Assembly (NCBI RefSeq): GCF_988242995.1
Contig: NZ_OZ547043.1
DNA: 64,000 bases
Reading direction: 5' to 3' (one strand)
Positions within the stretch are counted from its first letter, which is position 1; each line of letters starts with the position of its first letter. Made by a program: the position numbers and the translations under genes. Below are positions 16,660-40,202 of the stretch, piece after piece. A model generated the notes under the pieces. The model was not told where the DNA came from. It saw only the letters and a program-made list of their open reading frames with translations, and did not search any database.

Positions 16660-16785
<126 letters not shown>

Positions 16786-27227: not shown

Positions 27228-28301
27228 TTAGCGGGAGTAACTGACGGCAGCGGGCAGTGAAGGCGGGGAGAACAACAGATCGCTGAATGCACGCTGTGAA
27301 AGTTTTCTTACCAGCAAGCCCGCAACAGTACAGATGAACAAACTGACAAAGGGATAAACCAGCAGGAGTGTCAGTTCGACTTGCGGCGACCAGTGTGCCG
27401 CGTTCATTTGCGGAATCAGGCTTAAGCTGAATATTTCTACCAGAATGCGATGGGTGGTGTAGATAGCAATGGTGTTGGAGCCAATCACATTCAGCAGGCT
27501 GGTGGAGCGCATACCGAAACGTTGCTCGTACTGATAAAACAGTTTCATGATCACCACAATCGATACCAGCGACAACAGCAGCGAGATAGTAAACAACCAG
27601 GCACCGACCGCCAGAACGGTCAGCAAAGAAGCCATCAGCAGATGGCGGCGCAACGGCACCTCTTTAACGTAGGTCATTAATGTTGCGCCAAACCATGCGC
27701 CAAGGCTGTAATAAGGCAAATTGCGGATCACACTGTTCATTCCCCACCACGGCGTGGGAACGAAATTAACCGCCACACTCATCAGTACAAACAAGGCGAA
27801 TAGTGGCAGCGCCAGACGGCTAAAAATTTTACATACCACGAAATAAACAATTAACGCATACAGATACCACAAACTGGTGCTGGCGGTGATCATCCCGTGC
27901 AGGAACTCACCGGTGGAATCGGCATACGCGGCATTGGAGGCATTGCTTAAATCGCGCTCAGGTGCCAGCCACTGGTTCAGCGCACTTAACGCCAGCCACT
28001 GCACCACGCCCCAAAGCGCCAGCACCCAGAAGATGTTCCAGATGCGTTTATCGAGACAATTTCCCCACGGTACGCTGTCGATATAGCGGCGAATCAAATA
28101 GCCGGAAATAAAGAAAAAAACCGGCATACGAAAGGGGGCAAGGTAAAGATTGAAATAGATCCAGCATTTGCTCAGGACTTCCGATAACGGATGCTGAAAA
28201 GTGCTCAGATGCGGATAAAAGGTAATCACCGAGTGATAAATCACCACCAGACAAATACATAACCCTTTGATCTGGTTAATCCATAGCTCTTTTTGTTTCA
28301 T
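27228..28301 (-). CDS. ycfT: inner-membrane acyltransferase-3 family protein
   Basis: 357 aa; polytopic hydrophobic sequence; synteny mfd-ycfT-lolC. Confidence 0.85.
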   Translation of the reverse strand: MKQKELWINQIKGLCICLVVIYHSVITFYPHLSTFQHPLSEVLSKCWIYFNLYLAPFRMPVFFFISGYLIRRYIDSVPWGNCLDKRIWNIFWVLALWGVVQWLALSALNQWLAPERDLSNASNAAYADSTGEFLHGMITASTSLWYLYALIVYFVVCKIFSRLALPLFALFVLMSVAVNFVPTPWWGMNSVIRNLPYYSLGAWFGATLMTYVKEVPLRRHLLMASLLTVLAVGAWLFTISLLLSLVSIVVIMKLFYQYEQRFGMRSTSLLNVIGSNTIAIYTTHRILVEIFSLSLIPQMNAAHWSPQVELTLLLVYPFVSLFICTVAGLLVRKLSQRAFSDLLFSPPSLPAAVSYSR

Positions 28302-28450
28302 CAGGACAACACGCTCTTTTTATTTAATATGCTGTTGATCCTGAGGGGCCAGTCGCGTGGTGTAATGCGTATCTGTCTGTATTTGGTTATTTTTCAGATA
28401 AAGATCAGGCCACAAGGCCAATGAGAAAATGAGGCCCTTTAGTCGATTGA

Positions 28451-31699
<3,249 letters not shown>

Positions 31700-31727
31700 A
31701 GGCAGTACATTAAAACAAGGAGCGGCA

Positions 31728-32639
31728 ATGTATTACGGGTTTGATATTGGTGGAACAAAAATTGCGCTTGGCGTGTTTGATAGCGGTCGGCAGTTGCAGT
31801 GGGAAAAGCGGGTGCCGACACCGCGTGACAGCTATGACGCATTTTTAGATGCAGTGTGCGAGCTGGTGGCTGAAGCCGATAAGCGTTTTGGCTGTAAAGG
31901 TTCTGTCGGCATCGGTATTCCGGGAATGCCGGAAACAGAAGATGGTACGCTGTATGCCGCCAATGTCCCCGCTGCCAGCGGTAAACCGCTGCGTGCCGAC
32001 CTGAGCGCACGTCTTGATCGCGATGTCCGCCTTGATAACGATGCCAACTGTTTTGCCCTTTCAGAAGCCTGGGATGATGAATTTACTCAATATCCACTAG
32101 TGATGGGGTTGATTCTCGGCACCGGCGTTGGCGGCGGGCTGATTTTCAACGGTAAACCAATTACCGGTAAAAGCTATATTACCGGCGAGTTTGGCCATAT
32201 GCGTCTGCCGGTTGATGCGTTAACCATGATGGGGCTGGATTTCCCGTTACGCCGCTGCGGCTGTGGTCAGCATGGCTGCATTGAAAATTATCTGTCTGGT
32301 CGCGGTTTTGCGTGGCTGTATCAACACTATTATCATCAACCGTTGCAGGCTCCCGAAATTATTGCGCTTTATGATCAAGGTGATGAGCAGGCAAGGGCGC
32401 ACGTTGAGCGTTATCTGGATTTATTAGCGGTTTGTCTGGGAAATATCCTGACCATTGTTGACCCTGACCTGGTCGTCATTGGTGGTGGCTTATCGAATTT
32501 CCCGGCAATCACAACGCAACTGGCGGACAGGCTGCCTCGTCATCTCTTACCTGTAGCTCGTGTTCCGCGCATTGAACGCGCGCGCCACGGTGATGCGGGA
32601 GGAATGCGTGGTGCGGCCTTCCTACATCTAACCGATTAA
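31728..32639 (+). CDS. nagK: N-acetyl-D-glucosamine kinase (ROK family)
   Basis: 303 aa from [11 protein letters not shown] start; ROK zinc motif CGCGQHGC. Confidence 0.92.
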
Positions 32640-32654
32640 ACAACAGAGGTTGCT

Positions 32655-33476
32655 ATGCTGTCGCGTCGGGGTCATCGGTTAAGTCGTTTTCGTAAAAATA
32701 AACGCCGTCTGCGCGAGCGTTTGCGTCAGCGTATTTTTTTCAGAGATAAAGTGGTGCCGGAAGCAATGGAAAAACCAAGAGTACTCGTACTGACAGGGGC
32801 AGGGATTTCTGCGGAATCAGGTATTCGTACCTTTCGCGCCGCAGATGGCCTGTGGGAAGAACATCGGGTTGAAGATGTGGCAACGCCGGAAGGTTTCGAT
32901 CGCGATCCTGAACTGGTGCAAGCGTTTTATAACGCCCGTCGTCGACAGCTACAGCAGCCAGAAATTCAGCCTAACGCCGCGCATCTTGCGCTGGCTAAAC
33001 TGCAAGACGCCCTCGGCGATCGCTTTTTGCTGGTGACGCAGAATATCGACAACCTGCATGAACGCGCAGGTAATACCAATGTCATTCATATGCATGGGGA
33101 ACTGCTGAAAGTTCGCTGTTCGCAAAGTGGTCAGGTTCTCGACTGGACCGGAGACGTTACGCCAGAAGATAAATGCCATTGTTGCCAGTTCCCGGCACCC
33201 TTGCGCCCGCACGTCGTTTGGTTTGGCGAAATGCCACTCGGCATGGATGAAATTTATATGGCGTTGTCGATGGCCGATATTTTCATTGCCATTGGTACAT
33301 CAGGGCATGTTTATCCGGCGGCTGGGTTTGTTCACGAAGCGAAACTGCATGGCGCACACACCGTGGAACTGAATCTTGAACCAAGCCAGGTCGGTAATGA
33401 ATTTGCCGAGAAATATTACGGCCCGGCAAGCCAGGTGGTGCCAGAGTTTGTTGAAAAGTTGCTGAAGGGCTTATAA
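32655..33476 (+). CDS. cobB: NAD-dependent protein deacylase (sirtuin), long isoform
   Basis: 273 aa; sirtuin motifs GAGISAESG and zinc-binding cysteines; C-terminus 6 aa shorter than remembered K-12 protein. Confidence 0.9.
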
Positions 33477-33489
33477 AGCAGGAAGCATT

Positions 33490-33586
33490 GCCTGATGTGC
33501 TACGCTTATCAGGCCTACAAGGGGACGCAATTAATTGAATTTGCGGGTTTTGTGGGCCAGATAAGGCGTTCGCGCCGCATCCGGCA
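33490..33586. repeat. REP palindromic units (BIME) downstream of cobB
   Basis: gcctgatgtgctacgcttatcaggcctac and gccagataaggcgttcgcgccgcatccggc. Confidence 0.75.
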
Positions 33587-33613
33587 TAATAAACGCACAC
33601 TTTACTGCCTCTT

Positions 33614-34399
33614 TTACCGTTTACTCGTCAATAACAACGCGGCAATAAACGTACAGACACCAATCAGCCCTGCCCAGAGCGGCGATATTCTGGTAATCGC
33701 CAAGCTATTATCGATGTACAAACATAAAGCCTGATAACCCATATTGGCAATAGTCATCGCCACTGCAAACTTTAATGCATAATTAAGGCGCGTCGTGTAG
33801 TAAAAAAATGCAGTAAAGACGATGAATGCAACTGCCCAGGCAAAAAGACCTAATATCGTGGTACTGCCGGGAGGATCATTCTCCTGCTGTTGTCCGGGAT
33901 GCGGATAATATGTCAGTGGCGGCGTCGGTTGTTTTAATATCTGTGCTTGTAAAACAGCCAATGCATTATTGATTCCCTGATACCAGAGATCTGCATGTAA
34001 ATAAGCCAGAGTGTGATTTTCTACCAGAAGGCCGAGATGTTTATCATCCAGACCGCTTTCAACCTGACCGTTGGTTATCATAATTAACCGTGGCTCGCGG
34101 GTGGTAAAAAGTAACAGGACGCTGCCTTTTACATCACTCAATGAAGATGACGCATGCGCCAGCATCGCTTTGCCATTTTGCCTGAAGCTTGCTTCATTAA
34201 CGCCAGGTACAACCACGATAAACGGCGCAATCCCGGTTTGTTGACGAAAAAGTTCGGCTTTACGCGCGATCTCTTCGGCATCCGGTACAGTACCGGTAAC
34301 ATCCGTAAAAAGAGTCTTCATTATTGGAATCAATGGCTTACTGGTTACCGTCAGAGGCAGGAGTATCAGTAAACTGAGCAATATTATGATTTTTTTCAT
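33614..34399 (-). CDS. ycfZ: inner-membrane protein YcfZ
   Basis: 261 aa; signal/anchor plus C-terminal transmembrane segments; synteny. Confidence 0.8.
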
Positions 34400-34857
34400 G
34401 GGCGGGACTTCCGTTTCCTGCGTGTCTTTTTAGAGTAGGGCATACTGATTAATAAACCGACGGAGATAAAAATAACGCCCATAATGCCGATAAACCCCCA
34501 TTTAAAAAAATTAACCCACGGGTTATTTATCTCAGCCTTTTCAGGATGTCCTGGAGAATAATAAACATTAACTTTATCGCCTTCGCTGTCTTCATAAAAA
34601 TCGCTGCCAATACTCGAATTGAAAATTAGCGTGTAATCAGGCGTCGGTCGAAAGGCAACGACGGGATACCACGAACCATTTTTACCCGTGCGATGAGAAT
34701 GACTGGAGTGCCAGACGGTATCAACAATGACGCCTTCAGTATGAATCGCGTCTTTGCTATAGGTGAACTGGTTATAAAAGATAACAACAGAAATGAGGAT
34801 CAGTACCAGACCGATACCGAGGAATATACGAAAGAAAACTCTACTGTCCTGACTCAT
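34396..34857 (-). CDS. ymfA: inner-membrane protein YmfA
   Basis: 153 aa from internal ATG of ORF 34396..34899; overlaps ycfZ start. Confidence 0.78.
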
Positions 34858-34914
34858 TAGCCACATCCTTGCTAAATAAAAAACGGGCGGTAATACCACC
34901 GCCCGCTTGCTGAA

Positions 34915-35961
34915 TTAACGTCCTGCTTTCAGCTTCTGATAATACTCTTCATAAATGCTGCTGGCTGCGCCAACGTCATTCTGCCATTCACCATTTTTAA
35001 TGGTTTCAGCATCCGGGTAGAGCGTTTTATCGTTCGCCACTTCCGGACTTAACAGCTTACGCGCCGCAAGGTTTGGCGTTGGATAACCGATAGTTTCTGC
35101 AACCTGTTTTGCCACATCCGGGCGCAGCAGGAAGTTGATCAATTTCAGCGCGCCTTCTTTGTTTTTGGCATTTGCCGGGATCGCCAGGCTGTCCATCCAG
35201 AAAATGCCGCCTTCTTTCGGCCACACCACGTCAATAGGCGTACCCGCCTGGCGTGCAACGAAAGCAGAACCGTTCCAGATCATGCCGAGGTTAACTTCGC
35301 CTTCCATATACGGGTTAGCGGGGTTATCGGAGTTAAACGCCGCGACGTTTGGCATCAGTTTTTTCAGCTCGTTGTATGCAGCTTCAATCTCTTTCGGATC
35401 GGTGGTGTTACCGGAGTAGCCCAGCTTACGCAGCGCCATCTGGAACACTTCACGGGCATCGTCGGTCAGCAGCAGGCTGCCTTTGTACTCAGGTTTCCAC
35501 AGATCGGCCCAGCTGGTGACAGATTTCGGATCCACCGCATCACCGTTAACGCCAATCGCCGTTGCACCCCAGATATACGGAATGGAATAGTCGTTATTCG
35601 GGTCAAACGGCTTGTTGAGCATGTCTGGATCGAGGTTGCTGAAATTGCTTAACTTCGACTTGTCGATCTTCTGGATCATCCCTTCTTTACGCATTTTATC
35701 GACGTAATAGGTTGAAGGAACCACCAGGTCATAGGCACCGTCTTTGTACGTTTTCAGCTTCGCGTACATGGTTTCGTTCGACTCGTAAGTCGAATAGATA
35801 ACCTTAATACCGGTTTCTTTGGTGAACTGTTCAAGCAGTCCTGGCGGCACGTACTCGGTCCAGTTGTAGAAATACAGCGTGTTGTTGTCATCGGCGTGAG
35901 CGGCGCTCATGCCCAGTGCCAGAGCACCCGCCGCGAGCAGGTGGCGTGACCATTTTTTCAT
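34915..35961 (-). CDS. potD: spermidine/putrescine ABC transporter periplasmic binding protein
   Basis: 348 aa; signal peptide; potABCD operon order. Confidence 0.95.
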   Translation of the reverse strand: MKKWSRHLLAAGALALGMSAAHADDNNTLYFYNWTEYVPPGLLEQFTKETGIKVIYSTYESNETMYAKLKTYKDGAYDLVVPSTYYVDKMRKEGMIQKIDKSKLSNFSNLDPDMLNKPFDPNNDYSIPYIWGATAIGVNGDAVDPKSVTSWADLWKPEYKGSLLLTDDAREVFQMALRKLGYSGNTTDPKEIEAAYNELKKLMPNVAAFNSDNPANPYMEGEVNLGMIWNGSAFVARQAGTPIDVVWPKEGGIFWMDSLAIPANAKNKEGALKLINFLLRPDVAKQVAETIGYPTPNLAARKLLSPEVANDKTLYPDAETIKNGEWQNDVGAASSIYEEYYQKLKAGR

Positions 35962-36752
35962 TTAACGTCCCCTGTGTTACCTTTCGTTTTATCACGAGCA
36001 ATAAGCTGGCTGGCAATTACCATCACCAGCGACAGCACCAGTAATATGGTTGCCAGCGCGTTAACTTCCGGCGATACGCCGACTTTGACCATCGAATAAA
36101 TTTTTAACGGCAGAATTTCATAGCTTGGTCCGGTGACGAACGAAGAAACTACTACATCGTCCATCGACAGGGTAAAGCTTAACACCCAGCCCGCCGCTAC
36201 CGCTGGCATTGCCAGTGGCAGAATGATTTTTCGCAGAATGGTAAATTCGCTGGCACCGAGATCTTTCGCCGCTTCCAGCATTCGCACGTCAAAACCTTTC
36301 AGGCGCGAATACACTGTCACCACCACAAATGGCAGGCAGAAGGTGATATGCGAGAACAGCAGCGACCAGAAGCCAAGCTGAATACCCAGCAGCATAAACA
36401 GCACCAGCAGCGAAATCGCCATCACAATATCTGGCGACATCATCACCACAAACAGCATTCCGCTAACGAACGGCTTACCACGAAAGCGATAACGGTACAG
36501 CGCAACTGCCGTCAGTGAACCGATAAGCGTAGCAAACGTCGCCGAAAACACCGCCATTGTTAGTGAATGCTGCGCTGCCTGTAACAGGCTGTCGTTGTTC
36601 ATCAGCAGGCTATACCATTTGGTGGTAAAACCCTGCCAGTTGATGCCAAAGCGCGAGCTGTTAAAGGAGTTCACAATCAAAATAATGATTGGGATATACA
36701 GGTACGCGTAGATAGCGGTCATAAAACCGCCGCGAAGCAGTCGACCGATCAT
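35958..36752 (-). CDS. potC: spermidine/putrescine ABC transporter permease
   Basis: 264 aa; overlapping stop/start with potD and potB. Confidence 0.93.
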   Translation of the reverse strand: MIGRLLRGGFMTAIYAYLYIPIIILIVNSFNSSRFGINWQGFTTKWYSLLMNNDSLLQAAQHSLTMAVFSATFATLIGSLTAVALYRYRFRGKPFVSGMLFVVMMSPDIVMAISLLVLFMLLGIQLGFWSLLFSHITFCLPFVVVTVYSRLKGFDVRMLEAAKDLGASEFTILRKIILPLAMPAVAAGWVLSFTLSMDDVVVSSFVTGPSYEILPLKIYSMVKVGVSPEVNALATILLVLSLVMVIASQLIARDKTKGNTGDVK

Positions 36753-37606
36753 TCGAGTTCCACCTTTTTGTTCAGCAGACGAGAAGCGCGCCAGTAAACC
36801 AGCAACATCAGGCCCATTACGATAGTCAGCGTAATGCTGGTGGCTGCACCAAACGGCCAGTCACGAATATTGAGGAACTGTACTTTGATGACGTTACCGA
36901 TCAGCAGGTTTTTCGCACCGCCCATCAGGTCGGACACATAGAACAGGCCCATCGCTGGCAGCATCACCAGCAGACATCCGGCAATAATTCCCGGCATCGT
37001 CAGTGGGATAATGATGCGGATAAAGGTCTGCAACTTGCTGGCACCGAGATCGCGCGCCGCCTCCAGCAACGGCTTATCCAGTTTTTCGATACTCGAGTAC
37101 AGCGGCATCACCATAAATGGCAGCAGAATGTAAACCAGACCGATAATCACCGCACTGGGTGTGAACATGATGCGAATTGGTGTATCAATAACGCCCAGCC
37201 AGAGCAAAAACTCGTTGAGATAGCCTTTGGTGCTGAGGAAAATTTTCAGCCCGTAGATACGAATCAATGAGTTGGTCCAGAACGGAACAATCAGCAGAAA
37301 CAGCAGCAGCGGACGCACCTTGTGTGGCAGCTTCGCCAGAAACCAGGCAAAAGGATAGCCCAGCACCAGGCAGGCGAGGGTGGCGATCAGCGCCATATTC
37401 AGCGAGTGCAATAGCACTTCAAAATAGAGCGGATCGAGCAGACGCGTGTAGTTATCCAGCGTAAAGACCATTTTGACGAAACTGGCGTCGTCGCGGGTCA
37501 AAAAGCTGGTGCCAATGATCATCAGGTTGGGCAGAAAGACAAACAACACAAGCCAACCGACAATAGTGACAATCACTACATTCTGGAACTTACTTGTGTT
37601 CTTCAT
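36749..37606 (-). CDS. potB: spermidine/putrescine ABC transporter permease
   Basis: ORF 285 aa; the annotated start may be an internal GTG giving about 275 aa. Confidence 0.9.
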
Positions 37607-38726
37607 CAGCCAGTACGACCTCCCAGCTTTCTACCCAATTAATGGCCATTTTTTGGTCGAGAGAGTGGTCAAAGTCAGGATCGTCTTCATTGAAGAATTC
37701 GCTGACCATCACCATCTTGCCATTTTCCAGTTCAACAACCGACTCCAGCGTCATGCCTTTGTAGTTACGCTCGCGAACGTAACCAATCAGCCCTTCAGCG
37801 TGGTTGTCGTCGTTAATCTCTTCAACACGTAAGTCTTCCGGGCGCAGCAGAACATGCAGTTTTTGCCCCGGTTCAACGGCGAAGTTAACGTAGATATTAC
37901 ATTCGCGGCCTTCAACGTTGGCGCGTACGCGCTGCTCGTCTAGACGTTCGATGACAGTGGCGTTAAACATATTGATTTCGCCAATAAACCCAGCAACAAA
38001 CAGGTTTTTCGGCTCTTCATAGATTTCACGCGGCGTGCCGTCTTGCTCAATGCGACCATCGCGCATCACCACAATCCTGTCCGACATGGTGAGTGCTTCT
38101 TCCTGGTCGTGAGTCACGAAGACGAATGTAATGCCAAGCTTACGCTGTAACGCTTTCAGCTCGTTCTGCATTTGCTTGCGCAGTTTGTAATCCAGCGCTG
38201 AGAGCGACTCATCCAGCAACAACAGACGAGGCTTGTTAACCACCGCGCGGGCAATGGCGACGCGTTGCTGTTGACCACCAGAGAGCTGATGCGGTTTGCG
38301 TTGAGCGAAGGTTTCCAGCTGCACCATCCGCAGGGCTTCCATCACGCGGGGCGTAATTTCAGCAGCGGGGGTTTTTTGCATGCGTAACCCAAAGGCCACA
38401 TTTTCGAACACGGTCATGTGGGGGAAAAGTGCGTAGCTTTGGAAAACAGTGTTCACATAGCGGTTTTCCGCCGGAACGTGGGTGATGTCCTCGTTATCCA
38501 GCATGATGCGTCCGGAATCAACAGTTTCCAGACCTGCAATCAGGCGAAGAACGGTTGTTTTACCGCAGCCAGAAGGGCCAAGCAGCGTGAGGAACTCGCC
38601 ATTGTTGATAGTCAGATCCAGCTGGGGAATGACCTCTTTACCATCAAAGCATTTGCGAATTCCCGCCAATTGCACCAGCGGTGAAAGCGAACTCGGTTGT
38701 TTATTCAATTTTTTACTCTGTCCCAT
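37590..38726 (-). CDS. potA: spermidine/putrescine ABC transporter ATPase
   Basis: 378 aa; Walker [10 protein letters not shown] and ABC signature LSGGQQQR. Confidence 0.95.
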
Positions 38727-38975
38727 GTAAACGCAACGGATGGCTTACCGATGCGGGGTTTGTGGTTAACCACCTTGGTGACTCTTAATGAGGGCGGTAA
38801 TTCTACGGCAAACCGCTTGAATCGCCAATCTTTGTTGTGAATTACTGGCTTAGCTTTATATTCATTAAGGTAATGCTGATAAATATTCCCGCTTGCAGGG
38901 GTAAAAGTGACCTGACGCAATATTTGTCTTTTCTTGCTTCTTAATAATGTTGTCACAAAAAGTGAGGGTGACTAC

Positions 38976-40202
38976 ATGGATAAACTACTTGAGCGATTTT
39001 TGAACTACGTGTCTCTGGATACCCAATCAAAGGCAGGGGTGAGACAGGTTCCCAGCACGGAAGGCCAATGGAAGTTATTGCATCTGCTGAAAGAGCAGCT
39101 CGAAGAGATGGGGCTTATCAATGTGACCTTAAGTGAGAAGGGCACTTTGATGGCGACGTTACCGGCTAACGTCCCTGGCGATATCCCGGCGATTGGCTTT
39201 ATTTCTCATGTGGATACCTCACCGGATTGCAGCGGCAAAAATGTGAATCCGCAAATTGTTGAAAACTATCGCGGTGGCGATATTGCGCTGGGTATCGGCG
39301 ATGAAGTTTTATCACCGGTTATGTTCCCGGTGCTGCATCAGCTACTGGGTCAGACGCTGATTACCACCGATGGTAAAACCTTGTTAGGTGCCGATGACAA
39401 AGCCGGTATTGCAGAAATCATGACCGCGCTGGCGGTATTGCAACAGAAAAACATTCCGCATGGTGATATTCGCGTCGCCTTTACCCCGGATGAAGAAGTG
39501 GGCAAAGGGGCGAAACATTTTGATGTTGACGCCTTCGATGCCCGCTGGGCTTACACCGTTGATGGTGGTGGCGTAGGCGAACTGGAGTTTGAAAACTTCA
39601 ACGCCGCGTCGGTCAATATCAAAATTGTCGGTAACAATGTTCACCCGGGCACGGCGAAAGGAGTGATGGTAAATGCGCTGTCGCTGGCGGCACGTATTCA
39701 TGCGGAAGTTCCGGCGGATGAAAGCCCGGAAATGACAGAAGGCTATGAAGGTTTCTATCACCTGGCGAGCATGAAAGGCACCGTTGAACGGGCCGATATG
39801 CACTACATCATTCGTGATTTTGATCGTAAGCAGTTTGAAGCGCGTAAACGCAAAATGATGGAGATCGCCAAAAAAGTGGGCAAAGGGTTACACCCTGATT
39901 GCTACATTGAACTGGTGATTGAAGACAGTTACTACAATATGCGCGAGAAAGTGGTTGAGCATCCGCATATTCTCGATATCGCCCAGCAGGCGATGCGTGA
40001 CTGCGATATTGAACCGGAACTGAAACCGATCCGCGGCGGTACCGACGGCGCGCAGTTGTCGTTTATGGGATTACCGTGCCCGAACCTGTTCACTGGCGGT
40101 TACAACTATCATGGTAAGCATGAGTTTGTGACTCTGGAAGGTATGGAAAAAGCGGTGCAGGTGATCGTCCGTATTGCCGAGTTGACGGCGCAACGGAAGT
40201 AA
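38976..40202 (+). CDS. pepT: tripeptide aminopeptidase (peptidase T, M20 family)
   Basis: 408 aa from MDKLLERF start inside ORF 38934..40202. Confidence 0.93.

Follow-up and report, generated by a model that had tools for sequence, protein, structure and literature searches.

Where cobB ends differs among Escherichia coli strains. In the stretch of DNA analyzed here, 64,000 nucleotides of contig NZ_OZ547043.1 from RefSeq assembly GCF_988242995.1 (hereafter, the window), the gene stops six residues before the end of its K-12 counterpart. The locus thereby raises the question of which of the two forms is the altered one: the window form, which a preliminary description of this DNA had taken for the product of a small insertion, or the K-12 form, which serves as the reference.

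The cobB gene and its product in the window

The coding part of the locus comprises the following features:
Positions 32655 to 33476, plus strand: cobB, long isoform CobB-L, an open reading frame of 273 amino acids (aa) followed by a TAA stop.
Positions 32766 to 33476, plus strand: short isoform CobB-S, from the internal start Met38 (MEKPRVLV...), 236 aa by translation.
Positions 33474 to 33476, plus strand: the TAA stop of cobB; its first base, T33474, is the one that K-12-type genomes lack.

The last codons of the gene are ggc (33468-70), tta (33471-73), and taa (33474-76), and the protein ends in ...EKLLKGL; both the reading frame and the codon positions agree with the stop that had been described beforehand. 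The product matched the SIR2 domain (PF02146) with 183.6 bits against a cutoff of 24, over residues 48-221 and the full profile (1-180), and the enterobacterial CobB equivalog NF001755 (NCBIfam) with 597.9 bits against a cutoff of 318, over residues 1-272. Judged by these sequence matches, it is a Sir2-family NAD+-dependent protein deacylase. Residues 1-273 were identical to those of K-12 CobB (273/273), and the gene order nagK-cobB-ycfZ was the same in the window and in K-12; on the basis of this identity and synteny, the window gene is orthologous to K-12 cobB. Identity to the core of the characterized K-12 enzyme further implies that the window protein presumably has NAD+-dependent deacetylase/deacylase activity.

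The short isoform measures 236 aa in the window and 242 aa in K-12. It is annotated in MG1655 as a 729-nt CDS that starts at the equivalent ATG, and the Met38 start is probably used in the window strain as well. The full-length window protein matches the 273-aa E. coli CobB WP_000952736.1 without any difference. The same sequence is encoded by the 822-nt cobB genes of PCN033, ETEC6334, 2011C-3911, 806883-9-2019, the O103 strain ML775, and ERL03-1416, and RefSeq/PGAP annotates all six of these products as WP_000952736.1 and the gene as intact cobB.

A single T accounts for the difference in length from K-12 CobB

The K-12 gene spans 840 nt and encodes 279 aa, and MG1655 b1120 is likewise 840 nt long. 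When the coding 3' ends were aligned, a single T proved to be the sole length difference: the window reads GGCTTATAAAGCAGG where K-12 reads GGATTA-AAAGCGGG or, over a longer aligned stretch, GGCTTATAAAGCAGGAAGCATTGCCTGA where K-12 reads GGATTA-AAAGCGGGAAGCATTGCCTGA. In K-12, which lacks T33474, no stop follows KGL, and the protein continues with an extra tail, KAGSIA, before a TGA. Accordingly, removing the T from the window sequence gives tta aaa gca gga agc att gcc tga, that is, LKAGSIA followed by a stop, which is the K-12 C-terminus. The difference is definite and repeatable, set against a single reference strain, and not a matter of statistics.

The preliminary description had given this C-terminus (GLKAGSIA) correctly, and its attribution of the six-residue difference to one T is borne out by the alignment. 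K-12 cobB was also checked for a stop at the same position as in the window and was found to stop later; the observation therefore survives, and its evolutionary reading alone is reversed, as argued below. Overall, K-12 CobB (b1120, NP_415638.3 / WP_000952737.1, 279 aa; PDB 1S5P and the 6RXJ series) and the window form are alike in residues 1-273, in the nagK-cobB-ycfZ synteny, and in a downstream pair of REP elements, and the K-12 form differs in the absence of T33474, in its KAGSIA tail, and in a TGA that falls within a REP.

A REP pair follows the stop codon

The region 3' of cobB contains the following features:
Positions 33477 to 33489, plus strand: a 13-nt spacer, AGCAGGAAGCATT, from the stop codon to the REP hairpin, here part of the 3' UTR.
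Positions 33490 to 33518, plus strand: REP element 1 (REP1), GCCTGATGTGCTACGCTTATCAGGCCTAC, recognized by its local fold and by recurrence of its motif.
Positions 33555 to 33585, minus strand: REP element 2 (REP2), in inverted orientation, GCCGGATGCGGCGCGAACGCCTTATCTGGCC, an exact match to the REP pattern.
Positions 33614 to 34399, minus strand: ycfZ, encoding a TPM-domain protein, the convergent downstream neighbor (an open reading frame, annotated as ycfZ in homologous loci).

Both REPs are extragenic, lying between the cobB stop (33476) and the end of ycfZ (33614), which bounds the intergenic region, and together they form a BIME-like pair between the two convergent genes. Each is an imperfect palindrome of about 25-35 nt with a stable hairpin, the local fold reaching -13.1 kcal/mol for REP1 and -14.7 kcal/mol for REP2. 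A 16-nt inverted repeat joins positions 33505-33520 to 33550-33565, and the region folds with a z-score of -3.2. The MG1655 record has no REP feature annotated at the cobB locus, and the identity of the elements as REPs therefore rests on the recurrence of their motifs: the window holds a second copy of the REP2 type at 16713-16743 and of the REP1 type at 16758-16780, where none is expected by chance. A scan for intrinsic terminators found none downstream of cobB on the plus strand; its one minus-strand match lies inside cobB, at the level expected by chance.

The two additional copies at 16713-16780 constitute another BIME-like pair, made up of an inverted Y-like REP (16713-16743) and a GCCTGATG-type REP (16758-16780). 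The two-REP segment 3' of cobB (query 835-949) also matched a site outside cobB in another genome, with 82% identity and no annotated feature.

The same bases have a different role in K-12. There, those homologous to the spacer are coding (KAGSI), and the whole KAGSIA tail is encoded by the 13-nt spacer together with the first three bases of REP1. The K-12 TGA corresponds to positions 33493-33495 of the window, within the 5' arm of REP1, and the first 6 nt of REP1 consequently belong to the cobB CDS in K-12.

Both alleles are widespread in E. coli, on different numbers of haplotypes

We examined annotated cobB loci in 12 complete genomes, spread across the identity range of a search with a 966-nt query. 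The 822-nt (273-aa) form was present in nine of them, including PCN033, UM146, an O103 strain, and ERL03-1416, and the 840-nt form in three only, namely K-12 CETR1G40, NT1N28, and 510016. With MG1655 included, the cobB CDS measured either 822 or 840 nt across the 13 annotated genomes. T33474 was present in all non-K-12-type E. coli representatives, and the T allele occurred on at least six local haplotypes (those of UM146, the O103 strain, ERL03-1416, and PCN033 among them); the three representative genomes with the deletion allele all shared one identical haplotype.

Alleles were then counted in a collection of 5,426 complete E. coli genomes using 38-nt probes, the 28-nt seed of megablast being unable to bridge the indel or a nearby GGC/GGA polymorphism. 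The probes gave the following counts:
K-12 deletion allele on the GGA background: 1,707 genomes, 1,702 of them exact.
T allele on the GGA background: 2,975 genomes, 1,850 of them exact.
T allele on the GGC background, which is that of the window: 701 genomes, 474 of them exact.

The deletion allele on the GGC background had no match to its 38-mer probe in the 5,426 complete genomes. Overall, the T allele is the majority state, with 3,676 of 5,426 genomes (about 68%), and the K-12 deletion is found in 1,707 (about 31%), so that the alleles are accounted for in 5,383 genomes. The matches to the T allele include O157:H7, O104:H4, and ST131 strains, as well as the type strain ATCC 11775.

Several side observations emerged from these searches. 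None of the three allele probes found a match in 43 of the 5,426 genomes, which may have other variants of the 3' end or lack the region; the 966-nt query left one genome without any match. Among the 2,975 T/GGA probe matches, five were on plasmid-class records, which points either to chromosomal cobB segments carried on plasmids or to misassigned replicons. For positions 28000-40000 of the window, the best match among the 5,426 complete E. coli genomes was 99.1% identical over 12 kb, and eight records reached 99%. Since even the best match was just 99.1% identical, the lineage of the window is not closely represented among these genomes.

Outgroups share the stop of the window

In a protein search of the Enterobacteriaceae, about 110 of 120 CobB cluster representatives, drawn from genera including Cronobacter, Enterobacter, Klebsiella, Raoultella, Kosakonia, and Trabulsiella, had their C-terminus at the residue corresponding to the end of LLKGL and measured 272-274 aa. 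A KAGSIA ending was seen in only one of the 120, the E. coli cluster P0001, and by this comparison the window protein has the C-terminus that is typical of the family. The cluster of 273-aa proteins has members named Escherichia albertii, Citrobacter portucalensis, and C. amalonaticus; every listed member of the 279-aa cluster is named E. coli. The DNA agrees with the proteins: the E. albertii sequence, GGCTTATAAAGCAGGAAGCATTGCCTGA, matches the window base for base across stop and spacer and into the first part of the REP. The sequence of C. amalonaticus is GGGCTGTGA, with AAAGGGCTGTGA encoding K, G, L, and a stop.

In Salmonella, CobB-L and CobB-S are 273 and 236 aa long (PMC8603916, PMC10965786). 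These are the lengths predicted for the window isoforms from Met1 and Met38, the corresponding values in MG1655 being 279 and 242 aa. The likeness to CobB-L and CobB-S of Salmonella enterica is one of length, of the ...LLKGL C-terminus, and of the Met38 internal start. Our literature search for an explicit mention of the 273/279 difference in E. coli returned the Salmonella isoform lengths only. Both forms are already present in public databases, and neither is new in kind.

Because the outgroups and the majority of E. coli have the stop of the window, the polarity of the change is the reverse of that proposed in the preliminary description. The window very probably retains the ancestral, majority 3' end of cobB, and the K-12 lineage carries a derived 1-bp deletion that lengthened CobB. 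According to this reading, a single T would have been lost in the K-12 lineage (TTATAAAG becoming TTAAAAG), destroying the TAA stop. Translation would then run six codons through the former 3' UTR, adding K-A-G-S-I-A, and the extended frame would terminate at a TGA that belongs to the REP consensus GCCTGATG. The deletion would have arisen once, on one local haplotype, before reaching its present share of about 31% of complete E. coli genomes. It is the identity of the local haplotype that points to this single origin and to confinement to one clade; recombination could have spread the deletion allele or removed it.

Alternative histories of the extra base

The window cobB contains one T more than the K-12 gene and encodes a shorter protein, and it could accordingly be read as coming from a strain that gained a 1-nt insertion, acquiring a premature stop that cut an ancestral 279-aa CobB by six residues. 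We consider this highly improbable. The T, or a stop directly after KGL, is found in E. albertii, in Citrobacter and Salmonella, and in almost every one of the 120 Enterobacteriaceae representatives, a distribution that does not fit a derived truncation, and the T allele is carried by 68% of complete E. coli on many haplotypes, so that independent insertions at the same position would be needed in every such lineage. Both alleles are common in E. coli, as would also be the case if the 273-aa and 279-aa forms interconverted often through a recurrent switch resembling phase variation. Such a switch is extremely improbable, however, given that the deletion is found on one haplotype only (1,702 of 1,707 matches exact, and none on the GGC background) and that TTATAAAG has no repeat tract that would favor slippage. 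Finally, no kind of assembly error is commoner than the single-base indel, and the T had been flagged as possibly spurious; yet an origin in sequencing or assembly is next to inconceivable here, as no homopolymer occurs at the site, 3,676 complete genomes carry the T, and PGAP treats the 822-nt CDS of six genomes as an intact cobB (WP_000952736.1). Because the exact 38-mer of the window is common to 474 complete genomes, its cobB allele is neither truncated nor the product of an error in sequencing. What stands of the earlier reading is thus the single-T difference and the K-12 C-terminus; the proposed direction of change and the suspected error do not, the former contradicted by a stop shared with the outgroups and with 3,676 of 5,426 E. 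coli genomes, the latter by the population counts.

A separate candidate, programmed +1 frameshifting at UUA-UAA by which the T allele itself would yield the K-12 tail, was considered and rejected. From the sequence, the only basis for this judgment, it is very unlikely, because tRNA-Leu would need to form a new pairing with UAU and no prfB-like Shine-Dalgarno stimulator is evident at a suitable spacing.

Possible consequences of the K-12 tail and stop position

The tail of the K-12 form is unlikely to have a role in catalysis, because residue 221 is the last of the SIR2 domain, the two forms score nearly equally against the equivalog (599.8 bits for K-12 CobB and 597.9 for the window form, a 2-bit gap), the chain in PDB 1S5P, which covers residues 40-274, stops at residue 274, and the tail is missing from almost all relatives. 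The end of the 1S5P chain at that residue also indicates that the tail is not needed for the fold. Later crystallization constructs (the 6RXJ series) span residues 39-279, which counts against assuming the tail to be neutral. We nevertheless regard it as most likely neutral, and the earlier opinion that the difference is probably of little functional consequence appears correct.

The deletion might instead be non-neutral, either through the geometry of stop codon and REP, acting by stalling, trans-translation, or mRNA stability on the level of CobB, or through an effect of the KAGSIA tail on CobB stability or interactions. The stop lies 13 nt before the REP hairpin in the window and inside its 5' arm in K-12, and the deletion allele has reached 31% of the sequenced complete genomes. 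In addition, the passages of PMC12306157 that report Liang, Rudd and Deutscher (2015) state that REPs reduce translation of the upstream gene only if they start <16 nt after the stop codon, the effect being reported within 15 nt of the stop. With 13 nt from the cobB stop, REP1 of the window falls within this effective distance, as do the translation-regulating REPs near stop codons described in those passages, the likeness being one of spacing alone; K-12 cobB differs from the arrangement described there, its stop being inside the REP and not upstream of it. However, both alleles lie within the reported 15-nt range, and the difference between them may therefore be small; the frequency of the deletion is explicable by clonal descent together with the many K-12 laboratory derivatives in the collection; and cobB is not mentioned in the text supplements of PMC12306157. 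Taken together, we judge a non-neutral deletion unlikely. A stop inside the REP stem could affect termination or mRNA decay. The specific proposal that the deletion, by shifting the stop, which lies 13 nt before the REP hairpin in the window, into the 5' arm of that hairpin, altered REP-dependent stalling/trans-translation or 3'-end mRNA stability, and hence the amount of CobB, is quite unlikely. If it were true, K-12-type and window-type strains would make different amounts of the main lysine deacetylase, and acetylome work based on K-12 would not be fully representative of most E. coli.

The ycfZ side of the locus

The downstream side of the locus also varies. Three loci, those of the O103 strain ML775, ERL03-1416, and Citrobacter amalonaticus, have potD immediately after cobB and lack both ycfZ and the adjacent 167-aa open reading frame seen in the window (positions 33614-34899, minus strand). 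The alignment of the window to these three breaks immediately after REP1, which suggests a boundary of an insertion or deletion at the REP. In strain 510016, which carries the K-12-type allele, the annotation lists ycfZ as a pseudogene that contains an internal stop.

Implications for CobB in E. coli

For the window strain, the analysis describes an intact and typical cobB, and the difference that makes its product 273 aa long matters little. The practical consequences lie with the reference. Annotation and variant-calling pipelines that refer to K-12 will report a frameshifted or truncated cobB in most E. coli, though it is K-12 that very probably has the derived form. The solved E. coli CobB structures that we found (1S5P and the 6RXJ series) have the K-12 sequence, and about two thirds of E. 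coli, and related genera as well, lack the six-residue tail of K-12, a small caveat on generalizing K-12 results. K-12 cobB would thus illustrate, on a small scale, how a coding region can extend into a former 3' UTR and REP.
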